The notes beneath the pieces are model-generated. The model was not told the DNA's origin, ran no database searches, and saw nothing but the letters and a program-made list of their open reading frames with translations. Below are positions 3,441-26,809 of a stretch of 30,662 nucleotides of DNA, in pieces (position 1 is the stretch's first letter; each line of letters starts with the position of its first letter). The position numbers and the translations under genes are program-made. The stretch spans positions 1 to 30,662 of the IMG/VR virus record IMGVR_UViG_3300042360_000190; one strand, written 5' to 3'. The DNA is from a virus. Taxonomy: Duplodnaviria; Caudoviricetes.

Positions 3441-4214
3441 CTACAAATTCGCAAAAGATTTAAGCGCATACCATACATGGGAATTCCGATACCCGTTTGG
3501 ATGGGTCGGAATGATTGGCGTGACACCGTGCATATTGCGCCAAGCTGGATAAACCAGCATCGAATTGTCTGTCTGGTCGAACGTGGCCCCGTAATCTGGG
3601 ACGTGCAAATTGCCGCCAGTGCTATTCCGGCGCTTGGTTATGATGATATTTATAGCACCCTTCACGTTCGCATGGTCTTGATGGATTGGCGCGGAAATGT
3701 TGCAGTTGCTAATCGTGGAACTGAAATGCTTTGCGAACCGCCATTCTTCGGGTATTTTTTGCGCCACTTGCTCCAGATGCGTTTTCGCAACGCTTGGTAT
3801 GTATTTTTCGACCAATTCAAATGCCTTGATGCCGCTTGCGTTCATTGCCTTGGCGAAAGTTTGCGCTGATTTCACGCCATGCACAGATGAACGCGAGGCA
3901 TAAGGCCTACGCATATGCGGTTTCGGTGGGCATGAGCCAAGGATGGTGCTGTATTGCTTCACTTCCGCTTCAGCGTTACGCAAACCAGATGAACGGCGCA
4001 TATCTGACTTGGGGACACGGTTTGTTTGAATTTCAGCGTCAGCTATGTTGACCAGATTTTGCAAATCATCTGGAAGGTTTCGCAGATATAAACCAACTTC
4101 CGTTCCGTCTGGGTCAACCAATATGCAGCTTTCGGTTATGTTCGGTTCCAAACCTTCGGGCTGTGCGCCTATTCCGATGATGCGCTGAATTGGGTTTAGG
4201 GTGACAATCTTCAT
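3441..4214 (-). CDS. TET/JBP-family 2-oxoglutarate/Fe(II) dioxygenase
   Basis: HxD (IHQDHAN), GGNLHVPDY, distal His (MHGVTP) and 2OG-binding RxS (YRNSHVWY), in the arrangement seen in TET/JBP enzymes. Confidence 0.85.
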   Translation of the reverse strand: MKIVTLNPIQRIIGIGAQPEGLEPNITESCILVDPDGTEVGLYLRNLPDDLQNLVNIADAEIQTNRVPKSDMRRSSGLRNAEAEVKQYSTILGSCPPKPHMRRPYASRSSVHGVKSAQTFAKAMNASGIKAFELVEKYIPSVAKTHLEQVAQKIPEEWRFAKHFSSTISNCNISAPIHQDHANVKGAINIIITKRRNSTGGNLHVPDYGATFDQTDNSMLVYPAWRNMHGVTPIIPTHPNGYRNSHVWYALKSFANL

Positions 4215-11469: not shown

Positions 11470-11846
11470 CGCAGACAGTTATTTTGCGGGGACAGCCACA
11501 GCGTGATTTGGCCAAGCAATTGATTGATAAAGCCCCCGTCGATGCGGTTGTTAAAATCAGCGAAGCAAAGCGCAGCGATGACCAAAACGCAAAAATGTGG
11601 GCAATGCTGTCAGACATAAGCCGCGCAAAGCCAGATGGTCGGCTGCACATTCCCGAAGTCTGGAAGTGCATTTTTATGGCCGCGCTTGGCCATGAAACAT
11701 TATTCGAAAATGGTCTTGATAACAGGCCATTCCCGATAGGGTTTAGGACATCAAAGCTGACAAAGGCCCAGATGTCCGACCTGATTGAATTTATCTATGC
11801 CTATGGCGCAAACAACAACGTAAAATGGAGTGAAAAATATGAGTGA
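11466..11846 (+). CDS. ninB: NinB/Orf-family recombination protein
   Basis: [16 protein letters not shown]...WK..F...RTSKL....[13 protein letters not shown]...V.W. Confidence 0.88.
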
Positions 11847-12072
11847 ACCAAACAATGACCAGCTTCGTCTTTTTATCGAACGCATTGAGCGATTGAATGA
11901 AGAAAAAAAGGGCATCAACGATGACATCCGCGATGTTTACAATGAAGCCAAATCGCAGGGATATGATACCAAAATTATGCGGCCCGTTATTCGTCTTCGC
12001 GCAATGGCAGACCATGACCGCCAAGAATATCAAGCATTGCTCGACACATATATGTCCGCCCTTGGACTTTGA
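11839..12072 (+). CDS. gapR: GapR/DUF2312 (UPF0335) nucleoid-associated protein homologue
   Basis: [41 protein letters not shown]...RLR...LLDTY..ALG. Confidence 0.9.
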
Positions 12073-14076: not shown

Positions 14077-14223
14077 TTACTTCTTGCGCCGCTTTTTGGC
14101 TTTTTCTGCGGTCGAAAGAGCAATGGCAACAGCCTGTTTCTGGCTCATGCTTGGATGCTTCTTCAACTCATAACCAATGTTGCGGCTTATGGTCTTTTGG
14201 CTGTAGCCCTTTTTCAGTGGCAT
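14077..14223 (-). CDS. Small basic phage protein (48 aa)
   Basis: [16 protein letters not shown]...[11 protein letters not shown]...KKRRKK, a widespread small phage family of unknown function. Confidence 0.75.
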
Positions 14224-14224
14224 T

Positions 14225-14437
14225 TTAGCCCCCAATGATTTGCGACAGGCCAGCAGCGGCGGCAGCGACAAACGCCAGCGCAGCGGCAACAGTTGCCTTC
14301 CAGCCTAGTTTCTTTTCTGAAGCATCGACCATAGGCAAAAGGTTGCCAGTGGCTTTTTTGATGATGGCTTTTTCGGCTTCTTTTCTCAAAGCCTTGCCAG
14401 CTTCTTTTTGCAGCTTGCTTTTCAAATCCATTTTCAT
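14225..14437 (-). CDS. Small protein with C-terminal hydrophobic helix (lysis-associated?)
   Basis: Lys-rich N-terminus plus [23 protein letters not shown]; AGGAG RBS; immediately after the endolysin. Confidence 0.65.
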
Positions 14438-14441
14438 TCTC

Positions 14442-15053
14442 CTATAGCCAAGAAGCGTATTTCTTGGTTTTCAGTTTGCGGTCATCAAGGCCATGTGTTC
14501 CACCATTGATGCGCTTTGTGAGGGCAAGGATTGCAGCATCATTGATGCCTTGGTCGCAGATGCCCCACAACTTATTGCGGTCGAAAAACCATAGCGCACT
14601 TTCGATTGCCAGTTCACCAGCCACAAGGTCAGGGTTGTCCATAATATCAGGGCGATTGATATACTGGGACAGCGCCTTGTAATTGTCATGCCCTGTCAGT
14701 TGCAGAAAGCCGCGACCACGGAATTTCCATCCATCGCCGCTGCTTTCGGGGCCATTACCCATCCGATTGCCGTAAACCTTGTTGGCAATCTTGGCGGGTT
14801 GACGCTCATAGGCTTTTGCCAAAGCATCTGTCGGAAAGTATTTCCCAAAGATACCCCGCAATCCCTTTGCGCCATAGTTAAGGTTTTCGCTTGTGGCCTT
14901 CCAGTTGCCGCTTTCATGGGCGCACTGCGCGAAGAAGTGCGCCGCACGAACCTTGTTCAGCTTATAATGTGCAGCCGCAGCTTTCAGCGTGGCGGGGCCA
15001 AAAGCCCCGTCAGCCGGAATGCCGATTTTTTCCTGTAATTTTGTAAGGCTCAT
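14442..15053 (-). CDS. Endolysin, glycoside hydrolase family 19, with a short peptidoglycan-binding motif
   Basis: LQEKIGIPADGAFGPAT, AHFFAQCAHESG, ENLNY, DGWKFRGRGFLQLTG..NY, TKRINGG.HGL.DR. Confidence 0.92.
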   Translation of the reverse strand: MSLTKLQEKIGIPADGAFGPATLKAAAAHYKLNKVRAAHFFAQCAHESGNWKATSENLNYGAKGLRGIFGKYFPTDALAKAYERQPAKIANKVYGNRMGNGPESSGDGWKFRGRGFLQLTGHDNYKALSQYINRPDIMDNPDLVAGELAIESALWFFDRNKLWGICDQGINDAAILALTKRINGGTHGLDDRKLKTKKYASWL

Positions 15054-15556
15054 TTTCCTGCACTCCGCCAATCTGGAAAGTCGTTTTCGTCAACCACGCC
15101 ATCGCCGTTGGCATCATAACGCAAGTCATTGCGATGCTTTTCCCAAGGCTCCATTTCATCATCGTCATCATCATCTGGCTCATCAATGAACACAGTTGCT
15201 GAAGGGTCATCATAACGCGGTGCAGGTGCAACCATGTCAGGTGTGAGCGGTAACGGGTCTGGTTGCGGCGTTACGGGGGCCAGAGGCTCTGGTTCTGGGT
15301 CGTTGCGGTCTTCTGGGGGTGGTGGAACCAACTCGCCTTTCATGCCCATCAGCGTGGCGTATGAGCCAGCCACAGCACCGACAACCGAAGTCATGACGTA
15401 TGACAGCAAGCCGAATACGTCTTTGTTGTCGATAACTTCATTTGATACGAACAGGCCGACAATCATCGCGCAAGTGATAGCGACAATGACAAACGCCATT
15501 GTTTTTGCAGCCATCAGCAACGCCTTAATCCGTGCCTCTAATAATTTATCTTCCAT
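15050..15556 (-). CDS. Two-TM membrane protein with Pro-rich linker and EF-hand-like loop (holin candidate)
   Basis: Two hydrophobic segments, PPPPEDRNDPEPEP linker, poly-Asp run, DANGDGVVDENDF. ATGA overlap with the endolysin. Confidence 0.7.
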   Translation of the reverse strand: MEDKLLEARIKALLMAAKTMAFVIVAITCAMIVGLFVSNEVIDNKDVFGLLSYVMTSVVGAVAGSYATLMGMKGELVPPPPEDRNDPEPEPLAPVTPQPDPLPLTPDMVAPAPRYDDPSATVFIDEPDDDDDDEMEPWEKHRNDLRYDANGDGVVDENDFPDWRSAGK

Positions 15557-15558
15557 CC

Positions 15559-16089
15559 TTATTCCTTTCCTGCCAGCGGATTTGCCAGCGTCTTTTGGAT
15601 ACGTTCCTTCGTTTCAGCTTCCAGTTCCTTAATACGGCGCTGTTGCTCTTGGTCTTGCTGACGCAACTGGTCAATGACGGCACGTTGCATTTGCATATTC
15701 TGTGCATCGCTACTGCGAACGCTACTGCTTACAGCGTCAACCGTCTGGCGTGTTGCACCAACGCTGCTTGATATGCTGCCAGTTAAATAGTTCAACGCCT
15801 CGCTGTTGCCCTTGGTCAAACGCTCAACGCTTGTGACGCGCTCATCCATAACCGAAATGCGGCTTTCAATGCCAGACAGGTCAGGCGGCACATATGCGGC
15901 GGTGACTTCCTGCATCGTCAGGAATTGCTGATACACTTGAAAGCCAGCCCACAGGCCACCAAGGATTGTTGAGAATGCAGCAAAGATGATGGCAATTTTG
16001 CCGCTGCTTAGGCCACCAATGTTGAAGCTAAAGCCGCTTTCGTCAAAGGATACTTTGGGTTCTTCTTTTTCGTCATTTGTATTGGGCAT
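15559..16089 (-). CDS. Single-TM anchored coiled-coil protein
   Basis: GKIAIIFAAFSTILGGLWAGF TM, YVPPDLS, long heptad region ending IQKTLANPL. The start may be 16095. Confidence 0.75.
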   Translation of the reverse strand: MPNTNDEKEEPKVSFDESGFSFNIGGLSSGKIAIIFAAFSTILGGLWAGFQVYQQFLTMQEVTAAYVPPDLSGIESRISVMDERVTSVERLTKGNSEALNYLTGSISSSVGATRQTVDAVSSSVRSSDAQNMQMQRAVIDQLRQQDQEQQRRIKELEAETKERIQKTLANPLAGKE

Positions 16090-17791
16090 CAACAATCTCC
16101 CGCCATTTAGTGTCGTTAGTTTGGTTCATCCGATACATTTCAAAGTCAGCGTCACGCAGCCTTCTGTTGCGGTATATATCACGCACAGCGTAAAAGTCAG
16201 CCCTGTCAGACAACGCCACTTGTCGATAGGCACTGAAGGCAGGAACAGAACCCATTTCAGCGATGGTTTCCGATTGCCCTTCAGCCATTTCGCTTTCTGA
16301 CTTTTCAGATGACGCACTTATGGCAACGGGTGCTGCGCCGCTTTGCCCACCGACGCTGTTCAAAATTTCAAATGTGGTGGACATCGAAACAGGGCCACCA
16401 GCCGAAATAGCTGCATCAAGCGGTGAAGAACCAACACCAGCACCGCTTACGTTTGCAGACGTAGCCGACGTGCTTGAACCAAAATCAACGCGCATTTGAA
16501 AACTGCCGAAACTTTGCGACGATTGCGACCCGCTTTCAAACGCCGATGCTTGGCTTACTTCTGTTGCTTCTTCAAAGAATGCGGATTGCATACCCTGTCC
16601 GCTTTCTTCCAGCGCTGTAGCAAGCTGATTGGACGCGTCCTGTTCCAGTGTGCCAGATGATGCGTCTTGGCCTTGTGTGGCGTCCGCAGGGGCATCCAGT
16701 TCCAATAATGCCAATACTTCCTGCGCTTCCGTTTGTTCAGCATTCGCATCAGGTTCAGAACCTTGCGCGGCCAATGCAGCCAGTTCGTCTGGCGATAGCC
16801 GTTCTTTGTCAGGCCCAAGGTCTTCTAAATCCTGTTCCGCTATCAGTTCTTCAATAGCGTCATCTTTAATAGCTTCTTCTTCGACCGCAACTTCATCCGC
16901 TTCAACGGCGGCATCAGCTTCAAGCGATGCTTCGGCGGTTTCCAATGCTTCCTGCGCTTGCTCAATCACCTGTTCAATATCGCCTGCATCTTCCATTTGC
17001 ACTTCTTGCTGCGTTTCTTCCATTGCAGCTTGCTCGACCGAAGCCACAGCAGCTTCTAATGCGGTTTCCGACGGGTCAGGTGCGCCAATATCAATGGCAA
17101 TGGATGCGGGTGGACAGGATGGGTGCAGCGGGGCTGCGTTGCAATCTATGGCCACTTCTTCGGGGATTGGCGAACTATAGGTCAAAAGGCCCGATTGGTT
17201 TTGCAGGAATTGCGGATTGCGCCCGTAAAAAAGCGGCACGTTGTCACCAGCTTCGGGGCCAGTGATGCCAGCCGTAAAGTCGCGCCAGCCAGATGCGGAC
17301 ATCGCCCCATAATTGATTTGGATATTGCCGTTGCTAAACAGGCCAATTTCAAACGTGTTTAGATTGTTTGTGCCGTATTCCTGCACGTTATACCAACCGA
17401 ACAACGCTTCCCCATCGTTTAGGCGATAGAAGGGGTTGCCAGTGAAGCTGATAAGGTCTGACCAATATGCGTAAATCGTGTTGCGTTGCGCCTGTTCAAT
17501 CGGCTGACCATTGCAGCATAGGTTCGCCGCGCTTTCAAACGATACAAAGCCGTTGCTCGACACCCAAACGTCGGTGAAGGTCTGGCCCCAATATTCAAAT
17601 TCAAATCCAAGAGCAATTTGCCGCGTGTTGTCATCGCCAAGGTTTAATGGCGTCATGGTTGTGGGAGCGCCGATTATTTGCGGCGTCAGCAGCGTTGGGT
17701 CGTATGTTTGGGCAGACGCAGATGCGCTGACCAGCAATGCAGCCAGTAAAGATATTATGCGCTTATTCAGCGTCAGGGCGGCGGTCAGCAT
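16073..17791 (-). CDS. Exported protein with nidogen/NIDO-like domain and long acidic region
   Basis: Signal peptide (RIISLLAALLVSASASA-Q). LGDD....I.LGFEFEYWGQTFTDVWVSSNGFVSF...IYAYWSDL...NTFEI.L..NG.I...Y resembles NIDO-like domains. E/A/D-rich linker follows. Confidence 0.75.
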   Translation of the reverse strand: MLTAALTLNKRIISLLAALLVSASASAQTYDPTLLTPQIIGAPTTMTPLNLGDDNTRQIALGFEFEYWGQTFTDVWVSSNGFVSFESAANLCCNGQPIEQAQRNTIYAYWSDLISFTGNPFYRLNDGEALFGWYNVQEYGTNNLNTFEIGLFSNGNIQINYGAMSASGWRDFTAGITGPEAGDNVPLFYGRNPQFLQNQSGLLTYSSPIPEEVAIDCNAAPLHPSCPPASIAIDIGAPDPSETALEAAVASVEQAAMEETQQEVQMEDAGDIEQVIEQAQEALETAEASLEADAAVEADEVAVEEEAIKDDAIEELIAEQDLEDLGPDKERLSPDELAALAAQGSEPDANAEQTEAQEVLALLELDAPADATQGQDASSGTLEQDASNQLATALEESGQGMQSAFFEEATEVSQASAFESGSQSSQSFGSFQMRVDFGSSTSATSANVSGAGVGSSPLDAAISAGGPVSMSTTFEILNSVGGQSGAAPVAISASSEKSESEMAEGQSETIAEMGSVPAFSAYRQVALSDRADFYAVRDIYRNRRLRDADFEMYRMNQTNDTKWREIVDAQYK

Positions 17792-18803
17792 TTTCTACCC
17801 ATGCCGCTGTTGCAGCCGCGCCAATTTCACCCATGAACGGGCAAGGTGTGCCGGCCATTTCCATCGCCTTGAAGACGCGGATGTCTTGGCAAAGGAGGCT
17901 AACAGCAGCCACGCGCATTCCCATATCGTAAAGCGTCTTGGATAGCTTCATGCGTTCGCAATTTTGGTCGCGCACAGTGCGGCCAGCCGACAAGCCAATG
18001 ATTTGCGTCTGCACAGCGCCCGATTGCCCCGTGGTGCAAAGGTCTTGGCTATAAGACATCATCGACGGCGCGATGGCGCTGGGTGGCGGCGACTTAATGT
18101 TTTGGTCGATAACCTGACGGTTGACGCTCTCGCTGTAGCTTTTGCTGTCGGACACGTTGACGTTGTTATTCTGGTTGACGTTACGGTTGTCGCTGTTTGT
18201 CGTTTGGTTAATCGTGCTGGTATCGTTGTTGGTATTGTTCGTGTTCACGGTGCTATTGTTATTGCTGTTGACCGTCTGATTAACTGTGCTGTTGCTAACG
18301 TCCGTGTTGAAATTGCGATTGGTCGCGTCGGAGGTGTTGGCGTTTGTGTTCTGATTGATGTTTGTCATCGTGCCAGAATTGACATTGGTATTCTGGTTTA
18401 TGTTGGTCATCGTGCCAGAATTTTGGTTGATGTTGGTGTTTGTTGACGAACTTACATTGTTGTTGTTGTTCGTGTTCAGCGAAGTGCTTGTGCTGGCGTT
18501 CACGTTGTTGTTCGTGTTGACCGATGTGCTGGTGCTTGCGCTGGTATTAAAGTTATTGTTGGTGTTGGTGCTGACCGATGTGCTGTCCGACGTATTGGTG
18601 TTGTTATTCGTATTTGTCGATGTGCTGGTCGAAGCATTGTTGTTATTATTCGTGTTGGTGCTGGTGGACGTATTGTTGTTGTCAGATGTGCTGGTCGTGG
18701 TCGTGTTATAAATGTATTCCGTCGGCGCTACGGAAACAGCCTGCGCCAGCACCATCGACGATGATGCAGCGAATGCAATAAAAGCCAGCACAAATTTTTT
18801 CAT
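17763..18803 (-). CDS. Exported Asn/Thr/Ser-repeat protein with 4-Cys C-terminal domain
   Basis: Signal peptide MKKFVLAFIAFAASSSMVLA, ~200 aa of N/T/S repeats, then SAIAPS..DLC..SGAVQTQIIGLSAG..NCER..LCQD..AGTPCP. Confidence 0.8.
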   Translation of the reverse strand: MKKFVLAFIAFAASSSMVLAQAVSVAPTEYIYNTTTTSTSDNNNTSTSTNTNNNNNASTSTSTNTNNNTNTSDSTSVSTNTNNNFNTSASTSTSVNTNNNVNASTSTSLNTNNNNNVSSSTNTNINQNSGTMTNINQNTNVNSGTMTNINQNTNANTSDATNRNFNTDVSNSTVNQTVNSNNNSTVNTNNTNNDTSTINQTTNSDNRNVNQNNNVNVSDSKSYSESVNRQVIDQNIKSPPPSAIAPSMMSYSQDLCTTGQSGAVQTQIIGLSAGRTVRDQNCERMKLSKTLYDMGMRVAAVSLLCQDIRVFKAMEMAGTPCPFMGEIGAAATAAWVENADRRPDAE

Positions 18804-19030
18804 GGTCGGTCAGCCTTGTTATCCAGTTTGTCTTCAATGCGACGAAGGTGCATCATTACTTCGTCAAACTTCTTGTCGATGGCCTGAAATTTCTCATCGC
18901 CAAAACCAAGTCGCGCTTCAAGGAGCGTCAGCTTATTGGTCAGGTTTACCCATACAGTTATGAGCGCACCAACAAAGGTCAGGGCGGTCATAACAAAGCC
19001 AAGGATGGTGAAAAGGGTAGTGGTGTCCAT
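18800..19030 (-). CDS. N-terminal TM plus coiled-coil small protein (holin/antiholin-like)
   Basis: LFTILGFVMTALTFVGALITVWV, then a heptad region ending RIEDKLDNKAD. First gene after the tail fibre genes. Confidence 0.65.
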   Translation of the reverse strand: MDTTTLFTILGFVMTALTFVGALITVWVNLTNKLTLLEARLGFGDEKFQAIDKKFDEVMMHLRRIEDKLDNKADRP

Positions 19031-19478: not shown

Positions 19479-20720
19479 TTATGCAGTCCCGTATGCAGTG
19501 ACGTTATTGACGGCGGTAAACGCACCCGCGCCGCTTAACTTGGCAATGGTTGTGCCATTGTATTTGAACAACAGGTCAGTGCCGCTTTGCTCAACAGTGA
19601 AGTTTGTAGCCACAAGCTTTGTTGCGTTCGTTGCGTTGGTGGCATTAACAGCATTAGTGGCATTTGTAGCATTTGTGGCATTCGTCGCATTGGTAGCCGT
19701 AGTTGCCGTAGTTGCCGTAGTTGCTGTGGTTGCGCTTGTGGCTGTCGTGGCGGTGGTCGCACTGGTTGCTGTCGCAGCGTTGCCAGTGATGTTAATGCCC
19801 CAAGTGCCAGATGCACCCGTGCCATCCGCTTTAGGAGCGCCCACAGTGCTGTAATCAACAGTCCTTGCAGCCGAACCATTAAAAGTAGCGCCAGAAGAAG
19901 CGCCGCCCGTGTTGGCAAACGTCACGGCATTGGTGACAGAACCAGCAGTTGTTGCAGAGCCAGCCGTTGTAGCGGATGTTGCAGTTGTTGCGCTGACGGC
20001 AGTCGTTGCGTTCGTTGCATTGGTGGCGTTTGTCGCATTGGTCGCCGTTGCGGCATTGCCAGATATGCTGATAGCCCAAGTGCCAGTTGCGTTTGCGCCG
20101 CTTACTGAAGGTGCGCCAATGGTGTTATAGCTAATTATTCGCGCAGCGGAGCCGTTAAACGAACCACCAGCCGCGACGCCATCGCCGCCGCTACTGAAAG
20201 TTACAGCCGCAGCGGTAGCCGTAGCCGTGGACGCAGTTGTTGCAGTTGTTGCGCTTGTCGCCGTTGCTGCGTTACCAGTTACGTTAATGCTCCAAGTGCC
20301 ATTTGCGCCAGTGCCAGTTAGCGATGGAACACCAAGGTTGGTTCGTGCTTGGGCAGGGTCAGATGCTCCCGTGCCGCCATTTGCAACCGTAAGGTCAGTG
20401 CCGCTCCATTGGTCGTTATTGATGGTGCTTAAAACAGCCAGTAAGCCAAGACCAAGGGCAGTCCGTGCGCCAGATGCATTGTTCGCACCAGTGCCGCCAT
20501 TAACAACCGCAACAACGCCGCTGACGTTATTTGCAACGACATTCCAGTTCCCGCTGGCGTTTGTGCCGTCAGCGCGTGACAATGCGCGTCCGCCAACAGT
20601 CGCGCCGTCATGAACGTGGATTGTATCGGTGGTGGTGTTGACCGTTATTTCGCCTTCGACGCCAGTAAAACTTGCGTGTTGGGTTGTCGTGCCGCGACGA
20701 ATTTTTACTTGCTTACTCAT
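19479..20720 (-). CDS. Tail fibre protein
   Basis: Mtd-N-like start (KIRRGTT......G.EGEI..NT......HDG...GG), GGTGA repeats, three GTW.I.I.GNAATA modules with (T/N)AT runs, C-terminal NNVTAYG. Confidence 0.85.
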
Positions 20721-21322: not shown

Positions 21323-22221
21323 TAAATCAACCCTTCAACAGACAAAGAGCATTCCGATATTGTCGGGCCTGATAGCACAATTGAGAAATCGCGGTAATAC
21401 CCCAAAACAATCGTTTCGCTTCGGTCTTCGTCACCGATGTAAACAACGGGTGTTGTGCGGACAGATGCCAAAAAGCGCGTGAAAGCACTGACATCGCTGG
21501 TTTCGACCGTAACATCATAATCCGCACGTTTGCTGTAGGCGCGTTGGACGATGCTGACATTGCCAAAGTCATCAATCGTTTTTACCGAATAATCCTTGAT
21601 GCCAACGGAGGTTCCAAAGTTGGTAACAGCAAGCGCGGTTTTCTGACCGATAATAAGTTCACCGCATGAAGCCGTGCCAGCGCCAGCGTCGATGATAAGC
21701 TGGAAGGATGCGCCCGAATAATTTGGAATATCCAAAAACGCCACTTCAGATGCGCCAGTTTCGGTTATTGGCGCAAAGAAGTAATTAAAGTAGCCATCAA
21801 TGGCGCTGTAATCGGCAAGGCTTATGGTTTGGTCATAAACAGTCGTGCCGCCAGATGATTTGACAACAAGCCGTGCGCTTGAACCATCGACGTTGAATAG
21901 CACAACAGAATTGCAAACCGTGGCAGGGGTGATTTTGACATCAATCGTGCCGCTGTTTGTCGTGCCAGAGCCGACAGATATATCAAACATCTTAAAGCGA
22001 TTTGTTGCGCTGACAAAAACCCATGTAGGCGATATTGCAGCCGCACCAACATCAGGGCGGTCAGTCGTCGATGCAGCAACCACTTCATAGATTTTGTGGT
22101 CATATATAGTTCTGTTCCCAATCGTATATGTGCCAGCCGTCCATGCGGGATAATCAGTTTCCGCAACATTGGTGGTCGTCAGGTTGGATGCCGTAACATC
22201 GACGGGCTTAATAATAATCAC
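21322..22221 (-). CDS. Minor tail (tail-tip) protein with CBM5/12-like motif
   Basis: GTG start at 22221 after GGAGG; YPAWTAGTYTIGNRTIYDHKIYE; GIKDYSVK..DDFG.....R.YSKR; directly after the tape measure gene. Confidence 0.75.
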   Translation of the reverse strand: MIIIKPVDVTASNLTTTNVAETDYPAWTAGTYTIGNRTIYDHKIYEVVAASTTDRPDVGAAAISPTWVFVSATNRFKMFDISVGSGTTNSGTIDVKITPATVCNSVVLFNVDGSSARLVVKSSGGTTVYDQTISLADYSAIDGYFNYFFAPITETGASEVAFLDIPNYSGASFQLIIDAGAGTASCGELIIGQKTALAVTNFGTSVGIKDYSVKTIDDFGNVSIVQRAYSKRADYDVTVETSDVSAFTRFLASVRTTPVVYIGDEDRSETIVLGYYRDFSIVLSGPTISECSLSVEGLI

Positions 22222-25200
22222 TTGCGTCCTCCCGAATGTCAGGCAGTCCGTCGCCATCCCATCTGTCCATCAATTCAAATGATTTACCAGTGTTCTTGGC
22301 GACCTGATACAGCGCGTTATACATTTCATTTCGCATATTGGCTATGCCGTCAGCGGTCTGTGCGCTGTTGCTTGCCATGCTGGTTTGGTTGCCATCAAAG
22401 ACCGACCCTGCGCCCGTGGTGGCAATTTCAGCACTGTTTGCTGCTTGCGCGCCAAGTGTTTCGGTAAGGCTTGCCGACAGCCACGCACGGATACGGGCCA
22501 CTTCAAGTGCAGACGTTGCCGAACCAAGTGTCGCTTCTTCAATCGAACGGCTAAGTTCTGGCAGCTTACCAAGTGCATCCAAATTGCCCGTTCGTGCCTG
22601 TGCGGTCAGTGTGGCAAATTGGGCCTTCAGCAATACCGACGATGATGATGCGTTAATGCCGCGCAGACGATTGATTTCGTCAACGACAGTTTGGCTGACG
22701 TTTGCCAGTGTTTCTGCGTATTTCTGCATTGCTTGTGCGGCATCTTCGGCAGCTTTTTCTTGTATCTTCGCGGCGTCTTCAGCAGCCTTGGCAGCGACGG
22801 CATCTGCTTCTGCCTTGGCTTGCGCGGCCCATATTTGCTGCTTCAGCCCAACAAGGGTGGCGTCAATGGTTTCAAGTTCCATCGCCCGACGCGCAGCAAG
22901 CGCCTCAACAGCAAAGCCCTGTGCGTCAAGCAATTCAATTTCGAGCGAACGGCGTTCTTTTGCGATAGCCAAGATTTGTTCAGCAGCCCGTGCCTGTTCT
23001 TCGGCAGCAGCCCGTGCAGCTTCAGCGGCGGCATCATTTGCAGCCTTGGCATCTTGGGCAGCGTAAATCTGCAACTGCAACCCACGCAAGCTTGCGTCGA
23101 TGGTTTCCACTTCAACAGCGCGACGGGCAGCGAGTGCTTCAACCGCGAAGCCTTGTGCTTCCAATAGGTCAATTTCCATAGAACGACGTTCACGGGAAAG
23201 GGCCAAGGTTTGTTCAGCCAGCCTTTCTTGTTCCGCTGCCATTGTTTTGGTAGCTTCTGCCGCTGCATTGCTTGCGTTTTTGGCATCTTCAGCCGCATAA
23301 ATCTGAAGTTGCAAGCCGCGCAATGTTTCATCAAGCGCCGCCAATTCCAATTCGCGCCGCGCAGCCAATGCTTCGGATGATTTGCCCAGTGCTTCAAGCA
23401 ACTGTATTTCAAGTTCGACCCTGTTTCTTTGCAAGTCAGCAGCAGCCTTTGCCACTTCCGCCGCAGCACTGGCGGCAGCGTTCATTGCATCGTTTGCAGC
23501 CTTAGCGTCTTCAGCAGCCCAAATTTGCTTCTGCAAGCCACGCAATGTTTCATCCATTGCTTCCAATTCAAGCTGACGCCTTGCGACCAGCGCGTCGGTT
23601 GCAAAGCCCTGCGCTTCAAGAAGGTCGATTTCAAGCATACGCCTATCTCTGGCTAATGCCAAAGCCGCTTCAGCCAATACAGCCGCTTCTTCAGCAGCCT
23701 TTTCCTGTGCGTCGGCCAATGCCTGTGTCGCCTTTGCAGCGTCTTGGGCGGTATACACTTGCTCTTGCAACCCACGAAGGTTTGCATCCATGCTTTCAAG
23801 TTCTAACGCACGTTGTGCAGCCAAAGCACCCGCAGCATCGCCCTGTGCTTCCATCAACTGAATTTCCAGTTCACGGCGCGGCCTGTTGGCTTCAAATATC
23901 GCCTTGGCTTGCTTGATGGCATACAGTTCTTCAAGCTTTGCATAATCAGCCGCAGACGCACCAGCTTCGCCAAAGATAACCTTCAGCTTTTCCATTTCGA
24001 CCGAAAGTTCATCAAGGCTTGATTGCAGCGGGTCGCTTTGGCTTTTCAGGTCTTTGAACACTTGGTCGAACTTCAGTGCCTTCTGCACTTGCTCATTCAA
24101 ATCGTTGCCAGCACGAATAAGTGTTTGCGCCCCTGCGCTGATACCTGTGACGATGCCTTGTTGGATTGCCAGTTGCGTAATGTATGCAACCGCAGCCGCT
24201 TCGTCTGTGCCAAAATTCTTAACGCCAGAACCCTTGGTGCGGCCAGCACCAGTCGGGTCAACAACGTAATCCTTTTTACGCATACCAAGGCTGACCTTGA
24301 CGTTGCCGCCCAATGTCCCACCAAGTTGTTCTGCGACGTTGCCCAAGCCTTTCAACAGGCCATTTGCCATATTATCGGCAATACCCTTTAGCTGTGCGCT
24401 ATTACCCGTCAAAGTGCGCTGCATAGCGCCGCCAGCAATCTGGGTAAGCGTAACACTACCCGTTTTGGTTTTGGTCAACAAACCACCAACAAGACCACCA
24501 AGCAAACCACCAGCGATTGAACCTAACGGCCCAGCAAGCGAACCAAGCGCCTTGCCGAATACCTTACCGCCAATGTCCTGCAATCCCTTGGTCAAAAATT
24601 GCTTTCCAAGTGCACCACCAACAGCGCCACCAACAGCGCCACCAGCGCCGCCGCCGACCATCTGACCAATTTTGGCATTTGCAAGAATGGTCGCAAGTGA
24701 ACCACCAAAGTCCTTAAAGGTGTCCTGCAAATCCTTGGGTAAATCGTCAAAAATTGCCTTCAGGTCTTTTTTCAAATCTGGGGCAACGATGTTTATTTCT
24801 TTGCCAAGGTTAGCCAAGAATGAACCCGCGCCGCCGAAAAGTTCGTCGGTCAGGTCAATCAGGCCAGCAATCGTTTCCTTTAGCTTTTCAGCTTCCTTTT
24901 GGCGCTTATCAAAAACGCTTTCGGCATTGATGATGTCGGTTTCGGCTTTCAAGTATTCTTGCCAAGCAGCGTTGACATCTTTGATGCCATCAGCCGCAGC
25001 CTTGGCCTTAAATGCTTCTTCCTGAAGTTCCAATGCGCGTCGCGCACGGGCTTCACCAGTTAGGCCAACCAATGCCAATTCATTCTGCAATGGCTTGATG
25101 ATGTTGTTTTGGAAGTCCTTGCCAGCTTGGTTGCGGGTCGCTTCTTCCCAAGCAGCGCCAGCGGCCAGAATTTTTAAGCCAAGCAGCGCAGTTGGTGCAG

Positions 25201-26752
25201 CGGCAGCAGCAGCGGCAATTTCCAGTTTCTTAATTTCAATGGCGGTCTTGCCAATGCGCGAAGTTTCCTTTTCGGTATTTTCAAGAAATTGCTTCGCTTG
25301 CTTTTCACGCTGTTCAAATAGCTTCTGTTCTTCCGATTTCTTTTCGGCAGCAGCCTTCTTCTGTTTGCGTTCCTCATCAAGACGCCCTTTGGCAACCTTG
25401 ATGCTGTTGGCTTCCCACTTGCTCATAAACGCGCCAGCGTCAGAATAGGCGTCGGTGTATGCCTTGCCGATTGCCTGACCAGCCTTTTGTGCAGCGCCAG
25501 CATTTTCATTTGCGATTTGGGCAAATTTTACGGGGCTTAAAAGCGGTTCGCCAGCAAGGTCATTGATAGCGGCAACGATATTGTTGACCAGAAAGCCGAC
25601 AGCACCAATCGCAGCATTGACCGCTTGAACAAATAGGTCGCTTAAAACAGCGGGGAAGGTGGCCCAAATTACTTTGACGGCATTGAACGTCCCAGCAAAA
25701 GCCGCATAGATGATTTTAGCGGATGTGACCGCAAACTTTCCAGCCTCATCAAGCCAGCCTTTTATCGTGTCAAAGACTGCGCCAAGATTTAAGCCTTCAT
25801 ACATCGTCATCCAAAGACCTTTGATGGTATCCATCGTGGTCACAGATGCGCCGCCAGCCTTTTCAATTTGTTCACTGGTCATGCCCATTGCCTTGGCATA
25901 GGCTTCGACTTCACCAGACTTATCAAATTGCCCAGAGATAAGCGTAAAGCCAGCGGCCAAAGTAGCGGCAGCAGCGACCACGCCAAGGATGATTGCCGTA
26001 ACTGGCGCAAACGCAACAGCAGTGGCAGCGCCAGCGGCAGTTGATGCGGCGGCAGCTTGCATTTCTGCGGCAGAAAGAACCTTGGCTGTGGCAGCGGCTT
26101 CAATTTGTGCGGCGGCAAGACGGGCTTGACCAGCGGCACGTCTTTCGGTTGCTGCCTGTGCTGCCAATGCAGTCGTTGCGTTTTCAGCTTGGGCAGCGGC
26201 AAGCGCCAATTCAGCTTGTGCAGCAATCACAGCTTCAGCGGCTTGGGTATTCAATGCACGGAAACGGGAAGCAGTTGCACCAGTGGAAGCTGCGGCAGCG
26301 TCAAGTTGCGCGTCAGATGTTGTTTTCAAAATTCCAATGGTGGTCAGCAACGCAGCACCAAATTGCTTGGTGGACATCCCTGACTGCATCATCACGCCAC
26401 TGATTTGGCTTCCCTGTTGCACAAACGCCACAAGCGGGTTTTGCCCCGACGCAATCTGCACACCCAAATCCTGAAACTGGTATGCAAGGTTCGTGATTTG
26501 ATGTCCTGCGAGTTGGCCAGTCTGACCAACAGCCCTCATTGCGTTTGCGGCTGCGGTTTGTGCTGCGGCTCCTTGCGCGATAACTGCGTTCATGCCGTTG
26601 ACGGCCACGGATGTCCGCGTAGCTGTTGCCCCAAAGCTGCGAACACTGCCTTCAGCGCCAGATGCAGCAGCACCCATTTTATTTAGGTCTTGCGATGCCG
26701 ACGCAACATCGCGGCTATCAACTGCAATCCGAAGGTTCGCTAAATCTGCCAC
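22208..26752 (-). CDS. Tape measure protein
   Basis: ~1514 aa, Ala-rich. Lambda-type TMP motif NLAYQFQDLGVQIASGQNP...QQGSQI, a Gly-rich hydrophobic segment, and five C-terminal repeats. Probable GTG start at 26752. Confidence 0.92.
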   Translation of the reverse strand: MADLANLRIAVDSRDVASASQDLNKMGAAASGAEGSVRSFGATATRTSVAVNGMNAVIAQGAAAQTAAANAMRAVGQTGQLAGHQITNLAYQFQDLGVQIASGQNPLVAFVQQGSQISGVMMQSGMSTKQFGAALLTTIGILKTTSDAQLDAAAASTGATASRFRALNTQAAEAVIAAQAELALAAAQAENATTALAAQAATERRAAGQARLAAAQIEAAATAKVLSAAEMQAAAASTAAGAATAVAFAPVTAIILGVVAAAATLAAGFTLISGQFDKSGEVEAYAKAMGMTSEQIEKAGGASVTTMDTIKGLWMTMYEGLNLGAVFDTIKGWLDEAGKFAVTSAKIIYAAFAGTFNAVKVIWATFPAVLSDLFVQAVNAAIGAVGFLVNNIVAAINDLAGEPLLSPVKFAQIANENAGAAQKAGQAIGKAYTDAYSDAGAFMSKWEANSIKVAKGRLDEERKQKKAAAEKKSEEQKLFEQREKQAKQFLENTEKETSRIGKTAIEIKKLEIAAAAAAAPTALLGLKILAAGAAWEEATRNQAGKDFQNNIIKPLQNELALVGLTGEARARRALELQEEAFKAKAAADGIKDVNAAWQEYLKAETDIINAESVFDKRQKEAEKLKETIAGLIDLTDELFGGAGSFLANLGKEINIVAPDLKKDLKAIFDDLPKDLQDTFKDFGGSLATILANAKIGQMVGGGAGGAVGGAVGGALGKQFLTKGLQDIGGKVFGKALGSLAGPLGSIAGGLLGGLVGGLLTKTKTGSVTLTQIAGGAMQRTLTGNSAQLKGIADNMANGLLKGLGNVAEQLGGTLGGNVKVSLGMRKKDYVVDPTGAGRTKGSGVKNFGTDEAAAVAYITQLAIQQGIVTGISAGAQTLIRAGNDLNEQVQKALKFDQVFKDLKSQSDPLQSSLDELSVEMEKLKVIFGEAGASAADYAKLEELYAIKQAKAIFEANRPRRELEIQLMEAQGDAAGALAAQRALELESMDANLRGLQEQVYTAQDAAKATQALADAQEKAAEEAAVLAEAALALARDRRMLEIDLLEAQGFATDALVARRQLELEAMDETLRGLQKQIWAAEDAKAANDAMNAAASAAAEVAKAAADLQRNRVELEIQLLEALGKSSEALAARRELELAALDETLRGLQLQIYAAEDAKNASNAAAEATKTMAAEQERLAEQTLALSRERRSMEIDLLEAQGFAVEALAARRAVEVETIDASLRGLQLQIYAAQDAKAANDAAAEAARAAAEEQARAAEQILAIAKERRSLEIELLDAQGFAVEALAARRAMELETIDATLVGLKQQIWAAQAKAEADAVAAKAAEDAAKIQEKAAEDAAQAMQKYAETLANVSQTVVDEINRLRGINASSSSVLLKAQFATLTAQARTGNLDALGKLPELSRSIEEATLGSATSALEVARIRAWLSASLTETLGAQAANSAEIATTGAGSVFDGNQTSMASNSAQTADGIANMRNEMYNALYQVAKNTGKSFELMDRWDGDGLPDIREDASDYY

Positions 26753-26809
26753 GCGCAATATCCTGTTAGGCCCAGAGCGTTATCGCTTAATATGGGCCAT
26801 AGCACAAGA

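Follow-up and report, generated by a model that had tools for sequence, protein, structure and literature searches.

What is a cluster of exported and membrane proteins doing among the lysis genes of a tailed phage, and does it stand in for the spanins that disrupt the outer membrane of the host? The question arises from the IMG/VR virus record IMGVR_UViG_3300042360_000190 (Duplodnaviria; Caudoviricetes), a linear fragment with a CheckV completeness of 66% that was analysed over its full 30,662 nucleotides and is referred to here as the window. The original prediction placed four overlapping or abutting genes (A to D) between a holin-like gene (H) and a GH19 endolysin gene, took them for one module and proposed that the products of A, B and C replace the spanins, with a surface appendage as the alternative. 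The four open reading frames are indeed present on the minus strand, in a late operon that runs from the tail genes through H, A, B, C, D and the endolysin gene to two small genes (Table 1). None of the products of A, B, C, D and H matched a Pfam family, and a scan of NCBIfam returned composition-type matches alone, far under the cut-off. The unit that is conserved among phages is A-B-C, which is mobile and very widespread in aquatic phages, and a surface appendage fits the evidence better than spanin replacement.

Loci carrying A were collected from five scans of viral contigs, with the best 80 matches taken from each, a sample rich in close kin. The viral loci with A number 394, and where 5 kb of downstream sequence is available C lies downstream in 228 of 231; of the three exceptions, one is RSP15 and another, on inspection, has a C with a longer tail. 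Counts given below refer either to 347 loci with a complete cassette or to 80 distinct cassettes, namely those of 101 dereplicated ones that have at least 1.5 kb of flanking sequence. The A domain itself yielded 2323 matches among 2397 candidates, with 1167 clusters at 50% identity; of 50,697 named phage records, one query detected it in 13 and a second in 19. In HTVC023P, HTVC033P, HTVC115P, HTVC202P, Mosig, Baldr, CRP-207 and CRP-810, as well as in a uvMED phage and a Manatee Spring phage, A precedes a large exported B, after which comes a membrane-anchored C ending in Asn-Pro-Leu (NPL); the genes of the phages named here, annotated as hypothetical, belong with PHROG 20531 to the same family and keep the same A-B-C order. 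Two labels given in CRP-810, 'lysozyme' for C and 'OmpA family' for A, were not upheld, as no domain was found in C and the sequence of A gave no support. The cassette occurs in myo-, podo- and siphovirus-type genomes and also beside replication genes. To judge from its sequence, it is an undescribed envelope module outside every family tested. Our literature search found no study of it (supplementary files could hold a mention), the portions of PMC6811365 and PMC11288001 that were covered do not mention it under the terms searched, and neither virion proteomics for any carrier phage nor an RNA holder was found.

The fixed gene order and the conserved protein tails suggest that the products of A, B and C bind one another. 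Coevolution analysis of 165 paired cassettes (effective number 75) gave best scores of 6.8 for A-B, 6.6 for A-C and 5.6 for B-C; because three shuffles reached 4.6 to 6.3, these scores do not resolve direct binding. Gene D is absent from the conserved unit: D-like genes are present at 77 of the 347 loci, yet in 2 of the 80 distinct cassettes, and the proposed four-gene module is thereby reduced to three genes, with D a lineage-specific candidate that qualifies as a holin by topology only.

The description of A as an exported Asn/Thr-repeat protein with a four-cysteine domain stands. The protein has a hydrophobic N-terminal stretch (residues 4-26), consists to 50% of Asn, Thr and Ser, and carries cysteines at positions 256, 282, 305 and 321 in a conserved domain that matches PHROG 20531, a family without an assigned function. 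Ahead of the Cys256-Cys282 hairpin lie 53 to 410 residues in the 80 distinct cassettes. An AlphaFold2 model of the domain (mean predicted local distance difference test score, pLDDT, 76.6) shows this segment as a beta-hairpin followed by four helices. At six positions on one hairpin face, Gly, Ser or Ala account for 95-100% of the residues over 146 sequences; the opposite face and the tip are hydrophobic, and charged residues amount to at most 4% in any of 17 successive columns. In the model the core of A is a beta-hairpin, closed by a disulfide and with a Gly/Ser face, that sits on a base of helices. A search with the A profile gave no solved relative (best E 1.1), and there was no Foldseek match in the PDB at E 0.001 (best VIA Z 3.5); fold matches in BFVD are uncharacterised phage proteins only, and those in the ESM Atlas hypothetical viral clusters only. 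A four-copy model scored 0.48, against 0.00 for the best control, with at least 88% contact agreement among runs and pLDDT of at least 68; when calibrated, on two copies only, this mark was attained by 20 of the 30 solved pairs, as well as by 1 of 23 single chains. In the modelled interface strand 1 lies against strand 2 of another copy, accompanied by helix-helix contacts and the pre-hairpin segment. The model supports a predicted self-assembly of the A domain as a ring, and neither proves the ring nor fixes its size. The coevolving pairs Ile244-Ala263 (z 5.5) and Ala245-Ser261 (z 4.8), taken from a weak analysis, would place the PPSAIAP linker on the Gly/Ser face. In 23 of the 80 A proteins a hydrophobic C-terminal helix lies close to the domain; window A has neither this helix nor an N-terminal lipobox, the features of a unimolecular spanin (u-spanin) such as T1 gp11.

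The A domain also occurs in bacteria, at 50 loci in GTDB genomes, the closer of which appear to be phage contigs placed in bins. Roughly two dozen distant loci, mostly in Hyphomonadaceae, Caulobacterales and Micropepsaceae, are stand-alone genes among housekeeping genes, and their products have a signal peptide and Asn/Gly repeats. At three loci (L208, L218 and L220) a Pro-rich linker connects the A domain to a peptidoglycan-binding domain of the OmpA type (PF00691), and at L208 collagen repeats precede the A domain, a call based on a Pfam match only, as the regular expression used also picked up Gly-Asn repeats. Given the established architecture of OmpA-type proteins, the A domain probably serves as an anchor in the envelope, and its C-terminal side would be periplasmic.

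Protein B consists of a signal peptide, a beta-sandwich N-domain, an acidic linker and a conserved tail. The gene and the acidic linker agree with the original prediction; the signal peptide was recognised by eye and is below threshold in a 19-residue hydropathy test, and the proposed likeness to NIDO is weak, with PF06119 matching 6 of 46 B relatives (best E 0.018) and window B not at all. No solved relative of the N-domain was found, and the best fold match (Z 5.6) is a generic beta-sandwich. In distant cassettes this head is swapped for CBM-like, Cys-rich or other domains, and B proteins sampled over the 80 cassettes range from 263 to more than 800 residues. The tails fall into two types, present in 240 and 60 of the 347 cassettes, that are homologous to each other (82.7% against 0.75% for a reversed control), and the window tail is homologous to the pelagiphage type. 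A motif resembling the Y..NDPI of pelagiphage-type B tails, Y.GNDP(I/V)V-like in form, was also noticed in the C-terminal tails of the A proteins of L006, L171, L172, L187 and L309.

Protein C was correctly described as a single-pass anchor with a long coiled coil: one hydrophobic segment (residues 30-52) is followed by a long helical region, and the protein ends in NPL, the sole invariant columns across 83 C tails. Its length ranges from 74 to more than 200 residues. The segment and the helical tail fit the topology of a two-component inner-membrane spanin (i-spanin), a type II inner-membrane protein with periplasmic helices. None of 80 C proteins has a cysteine in its last 60%, C matches no PHROG, and a comparison with two i-spanin profiles gave an 18-column match to one small profile at a probability of 39% and none to the other.

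As had been stated, D has two membrane segments and an EF-hand: hydrophobic segments span residues 9-43 and 47-65, and a Pro-rich and acidic tail and an EF-hand-type loop, DANGDGVVDEND, were found. Comparison with three holin-like clusters gave no match (at most 2.5%), and comparison with an EF-hand cluster with two membrane segments gave a weak one (32%). H travels along with the block and has weak matches to PHROGs of unassigned function; its role as holin is that of a candidate only. Near GH19 endolysins, in about 10 of the 80 cassette neighbourhoods, we noticed a pair encoding a Cys-rich membrane protein and a protein with two membrane segments (L320:5096-5883), the latter with faint likeness only to D.

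With regard to spanins, a six-frame lipobox scan gave five candidates in the window and none that is a credible gene, in agreement with the earlier statement that the window encodes no lipoprotein of the outer-membrane spanin (o-spanin) type. Three near-complete genomes (G048-G050) have the block from H to the endolysin at 47-95% identity (H itself in two of them), although none of their portal, terminase and tail genes is shared with the window; they contain no spanin profile match and, in a scan that recovers 10 of 11 known o-spanins, no credible lipobox gene, the one candidate noted being antisense. The window lineage therefore seems to lack spanins. In the portions of PMC6139136 consulted, 13% of phages and many marine ones are described as lacking spanins, and i-spanins without periplasmic cysteines as amounting to about 4%. 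Canonical pairs, on the other hand, adjoin complete cassettes at 11 of the 347 loci and in 7 of the 80 distinct cassettes, counted in flanks only; they belong to the PHROG spanin families 739 and 812, whose o-spanins bear lipoboxes, and the expectation that the cassette never accompanies normal spanins fails to that extent. In JWAlpha, A is present by itself, and an annotated Rz/Rz1-like gene lies at a distance of 50 kb. Endolysins were found for 34 of the distinct cassettes, in 29 of the 80 at a distance of at most 1.5 kb; the 46 of 80 without a recognised endolysin in the fetched flanks are an upper bound, because lysin profiles were built from nameable neighbours and PHROGs run on 150 of 347 neighbour clusters. 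What stands of the idea that A, B and C replace spanins is a conserved envelope module, often near lysis genes, in a lineage without detectable lipoprotein spanin; as a general rule the idea does not hold, given the adjoining spanin pairs, the cassettes lacking a recognised endolysin, and A alone in bacterial chromosomes and in JWAlpha.

Sister T4-like phages exchange the cassette for a curli module. The slot concerned has a T4-type spanin pair on one side and, on the other, a DUF7201-like gene with primase; it holds A-B-C in L203 and L230 and a CsgF-CsgG curli module in L520, L522, L525 and L528. Identity between the spanins of L203 and those of the curli phages is 68-71%; L196 and Mosig have the same downstream flank as L203 and L230. 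Of 80 CsgG loci, 13 are directly preceded by the T4-type spanin pair and 5 are followed by the DUF7201-like gene, with 4 flanked by both. None of the 80 loci has A, B or C, and no A locus has CsgG. CsgG was likewise absent from 50 whole A-B-C records (13 at least 90% complete; positive controls detected), and A from 39 CsgG records, a weak result as only 2 are at least 90% complete and no positive control was available; the cultured carriers of A-B-C and of CsgG are disjoint sets. The exchange identifies the cassette as an optional extra next to the spanins, and only suggests a role in adhesion. It is not decisive for adhesion, because the part of PMC9004378 consulted reports no clumping with phage curli and proposes a role in lysis, while 'sibling capture' is offered as a hypothesis in what we consulted of the descriptions of phage curli (PMC7029224, PMC9599517).

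In 19 of the 347 cassettes three extra secreted genes lie between B and C, one of which resembles clusters of the fimbrial major subunits SCPU, CS1, SEF14 and EcpA at 0.92-0.94 (ESM Atlas language-model features, which carry no E-value). Pilin and chaperone genes, as expected of a chaperone-usher pilus, are absent from the window cassette. Vibrio phages, as well as plasmids of Vibrio and Mesorhizobium, carry relatives of the trio on their own, as a pilin-like gene, a chaperone-like gene and a gene for a Cys-hairpin with coiled coil (L259:8225-9532, L468:4047-5874, L469:3139-4294, L471:3603-4839); the third gene has matches in 178 records, and no usher gene was seen in the regions opened, which may represent a minimal pilus system. 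No kinship of A to the second Cys-hairpin protein of the inserts was detectable (0.75%).

We favour, at about even confidence, the reading that A-B-C is a late-expressed, trans-envelope device for surface display, predicted to be held by an oligomeric anchor of A. The position in the lysis operon would give late and high expression, and the three products would assemble late in infection into an anchor that presents repeats and lectin-like domains on the outside of the infected cell, probably to attach it to neighbouring host cells or to shield it against other phages. In the predicted ring, adjacent A hairpins pair through their strands, with the helices in a ring beneath them, and may form a small outer-membrane beta-barrel, and packing of the PPSAIAP linker on the Gly/Ser face would leave the repeats outside and the helices in the periplasm. 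B would dock through its conserved tail, and C would link the ring with the inner membrane by its NPL end, taking the role that the OmpA domain presumably plays in the bacterial fusions. Surface display is favoured because sister phages hold a fibre-secretion module in the same slot and because some carriers keep spanins. Several points weigh against it: a small barrel with its own linkers inside would be unable to export B; the C-terminal helix seen in 23 of 80 A proteins could keep A at the inner membrane; 29 of the 34 endolysins found sit within 1.5 kb of the cassette; the block through the endolysin is kept in G048-G050, genomes without a lipoprotein spanin; and the function of phage curli is itself unproven, so that slot exchange alone cannot separate adhesion from lysis.

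An accessory disruption of the outer membrane, with C as i-spanin and the A hairpin as a fusion loop or as the partner in the outer membrane, essential in lineages that lack spanins, such as the present one, and redundant elsewhere, appears rather unlikely to us. The lack of a credible lipobox gene in the window and in G048-G050, the topology of C and the tight endolysin linkage speak for it, as do the suggestion that an outer-membrane protein could act as o-spanin (PMC6139136, in its section 15) and, by analogy, the A variants whose C-terminal membrane helix resembles the topology of u-spanins; it is opposed by the spanin pairs beside full cassettes, by spanins retained where the module is swapped for curli, by the missing periplasmic cysteines and the short match of C to a single i-spanin profile, and by lectin-like variable heads, pilin-like inserts and chromosomal OmpA fusions, for which membrane fusion offers no role, and marine phages often do without spanins anyway, to go by the same part of that source. 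We regard as improbable an internal brace linking outer membrane, wall and inner membrane that delays lysis or blocks the entry of superinfecting DNA, with no surface fibre: the OmpA-domain fusions that connect the A domain to peptidoglycan, the length range of C, which suits a periplasmic strut, and the late-operon position are compatible with it, but it leaves the swaps of B heads, the collagen and long repeat extensions, the pilin-like inserts and the curli exchange unexplained. That the three proteins are virion parts, fibres or decoration, is very improbable; their genes often lie downstream of tail genes and encode repeat-rich and lectin-like domains, and yet the proteins have signal peptides and membrane anchors, one cassette serves myo-, podo- and siphovirus-type genomes and stands beside replication genes, and A occurs alone in bacterial chromosomes.

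The head and tail genes of the window are of siphovirus type, and alphaproteobacteria-type markers such as GapR suggest an alphaproteobacterial host. The genes of the block overlap by 4 bp (H/A), 29 bp (A/B), 17 bp (B/C) and 4 bp (D/endolysin), with a 2-bp gap between C and D. Of the two small genes after the endolysin, the first encodes a basic protein with a hydrophobic C-terminal helix, a candidate outer-membrane disruptor in a spanin-less lineage. Elsewhere in the window, a Tet/JBP-type 2OG-Fe(II) oxygenase gene adjoins a ParB-like gene and the terminase and suggests possible DNA base modification, and the tape-measure-like protein is long for such a genome size.

Table 1. Features of the window, with positions counted from its first letter.
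Feature	Position	Strand	Remarks
Gene H	18800..19030	-	76 aa; one N-terminal membrane segment and helical tail
Gene A	17763..18803	-	346 aa; PHROG 20531 match
A passenger, residues 31-235	18099..18713	-	variable-length Asn/Thr/Ser repeats, likely exported
A hairpin, Cys256-Cys282	17958..18038	-	predicted oligomeric membrane anchor
Gene B	16073..17791	-	572 aa
B N-domain	17102..17710	-	all-beta model, pLDDT 85.6; beta-sandwich, weakly NIDO-like
B C-terminal tail	16073..16300	-	motif M..PGF..Y....PD..FY....IY......DN....QY
Gene C	15559..16089	-	176 aa counted from ATG
C NPL end	15574-15582		
Gene D	15050..15556	-	168 aa
GH19 endolysin	14442..15053	-	PF00182 E 6e-8; phrog_181 E 4e-60; ATG at 15053
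First small gene	14225-14437	-	
Second small gene	14077-14223	-	very basic, 48 residues; phrog_2423
2OG-Fe(II) oxygenase	3441-4214	-	PF12851, E 7e-8
GapR-like DNA-binding protein	11830-12072	+	phage-encoded; copies in G048 and G049 at 58% identity
Tail fibre	19479-20720	-	Mtd_N domain and long Thr-Ala-Asn repeats
Tape-measure-like protein	22208-26758	-	1516 aa

The cassette is a common unannotated module of aquatic phages, and since cultured SAR11 and Roseobacter phages carry it, its function can be tested now. Either outcome, display or disruption, would be new: adhesin display would offer another way, unrelated to phage curli, of achieving the 'sibling capture' that is so far a hypothesis for curli, and would bring with it a new small outer-membrane anchor, and outer-membrane breaking would answer how spanin-less phages finish lysis. 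A broader proposal, possible but on balance doubtful, is that A represents an undescribed minimal class of secretion and anchoring proteins, a self-assembling barrel of disulfide-closed hairpins threaded by its passenger that stands alone or tied to peptidoglycan in bacteria, and to which thousands of aquatic phages add B and C, making the infected cell an adhesive trap for the next host, interchangeably with curli.

Among known systems, the phage curli (CsgF-CsgG-CsgA/B, in pelagiphages and Melnitz) are likewise a multi-gene exported module of aquatic phages that crosses phage families, takes the place of the cassette in sister T4-like phages and combines, in outline, an oligomeric beta-hairpin pore with a repeat protein. 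A has no sequence likeness to CsgG, CsgF or CsgB of HTVC008M (probability at most 0.35%) and no Pfam match, and A-B-C differs from curli in having one hairpin per subunit, no lipobox, a required inner-membrane coiled coil, and neither FecR nor cyclase. Two-component spanins (lambda Rz/Rz1; T4 PseT.3/PseT.2) resemble the cassette in that C is N-terminally anchored, helical and often encoded in a lysis operon, whereas A-B-C comprises three large genes with no lipoprotein partner and no periplasmic cysteine, and coexists with true pairs. In architecture, trimeric autotransporter adhesins (type Vc) share with A a signal peptide, a variable N-terminal repeat passenger and a short conserved C-terminal oligomeric beta-anchor, maybe threaded by the passenger linker; A has one disulfide-closed hairpin and a helical domain in place of the four terminal strands of a YadA-type anchor (the model shows two strands and then helices, with no Pfam or fold match), as well as the partners B and C. 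From proteins of the OmpA/OprF type A would differ in that its membrane part comes from several chains and in that phage A lacks the OmpA domain, and the likeness lies in the three bacterial A-domain genes that reach PF00691 by way of their Pro-rich linker.

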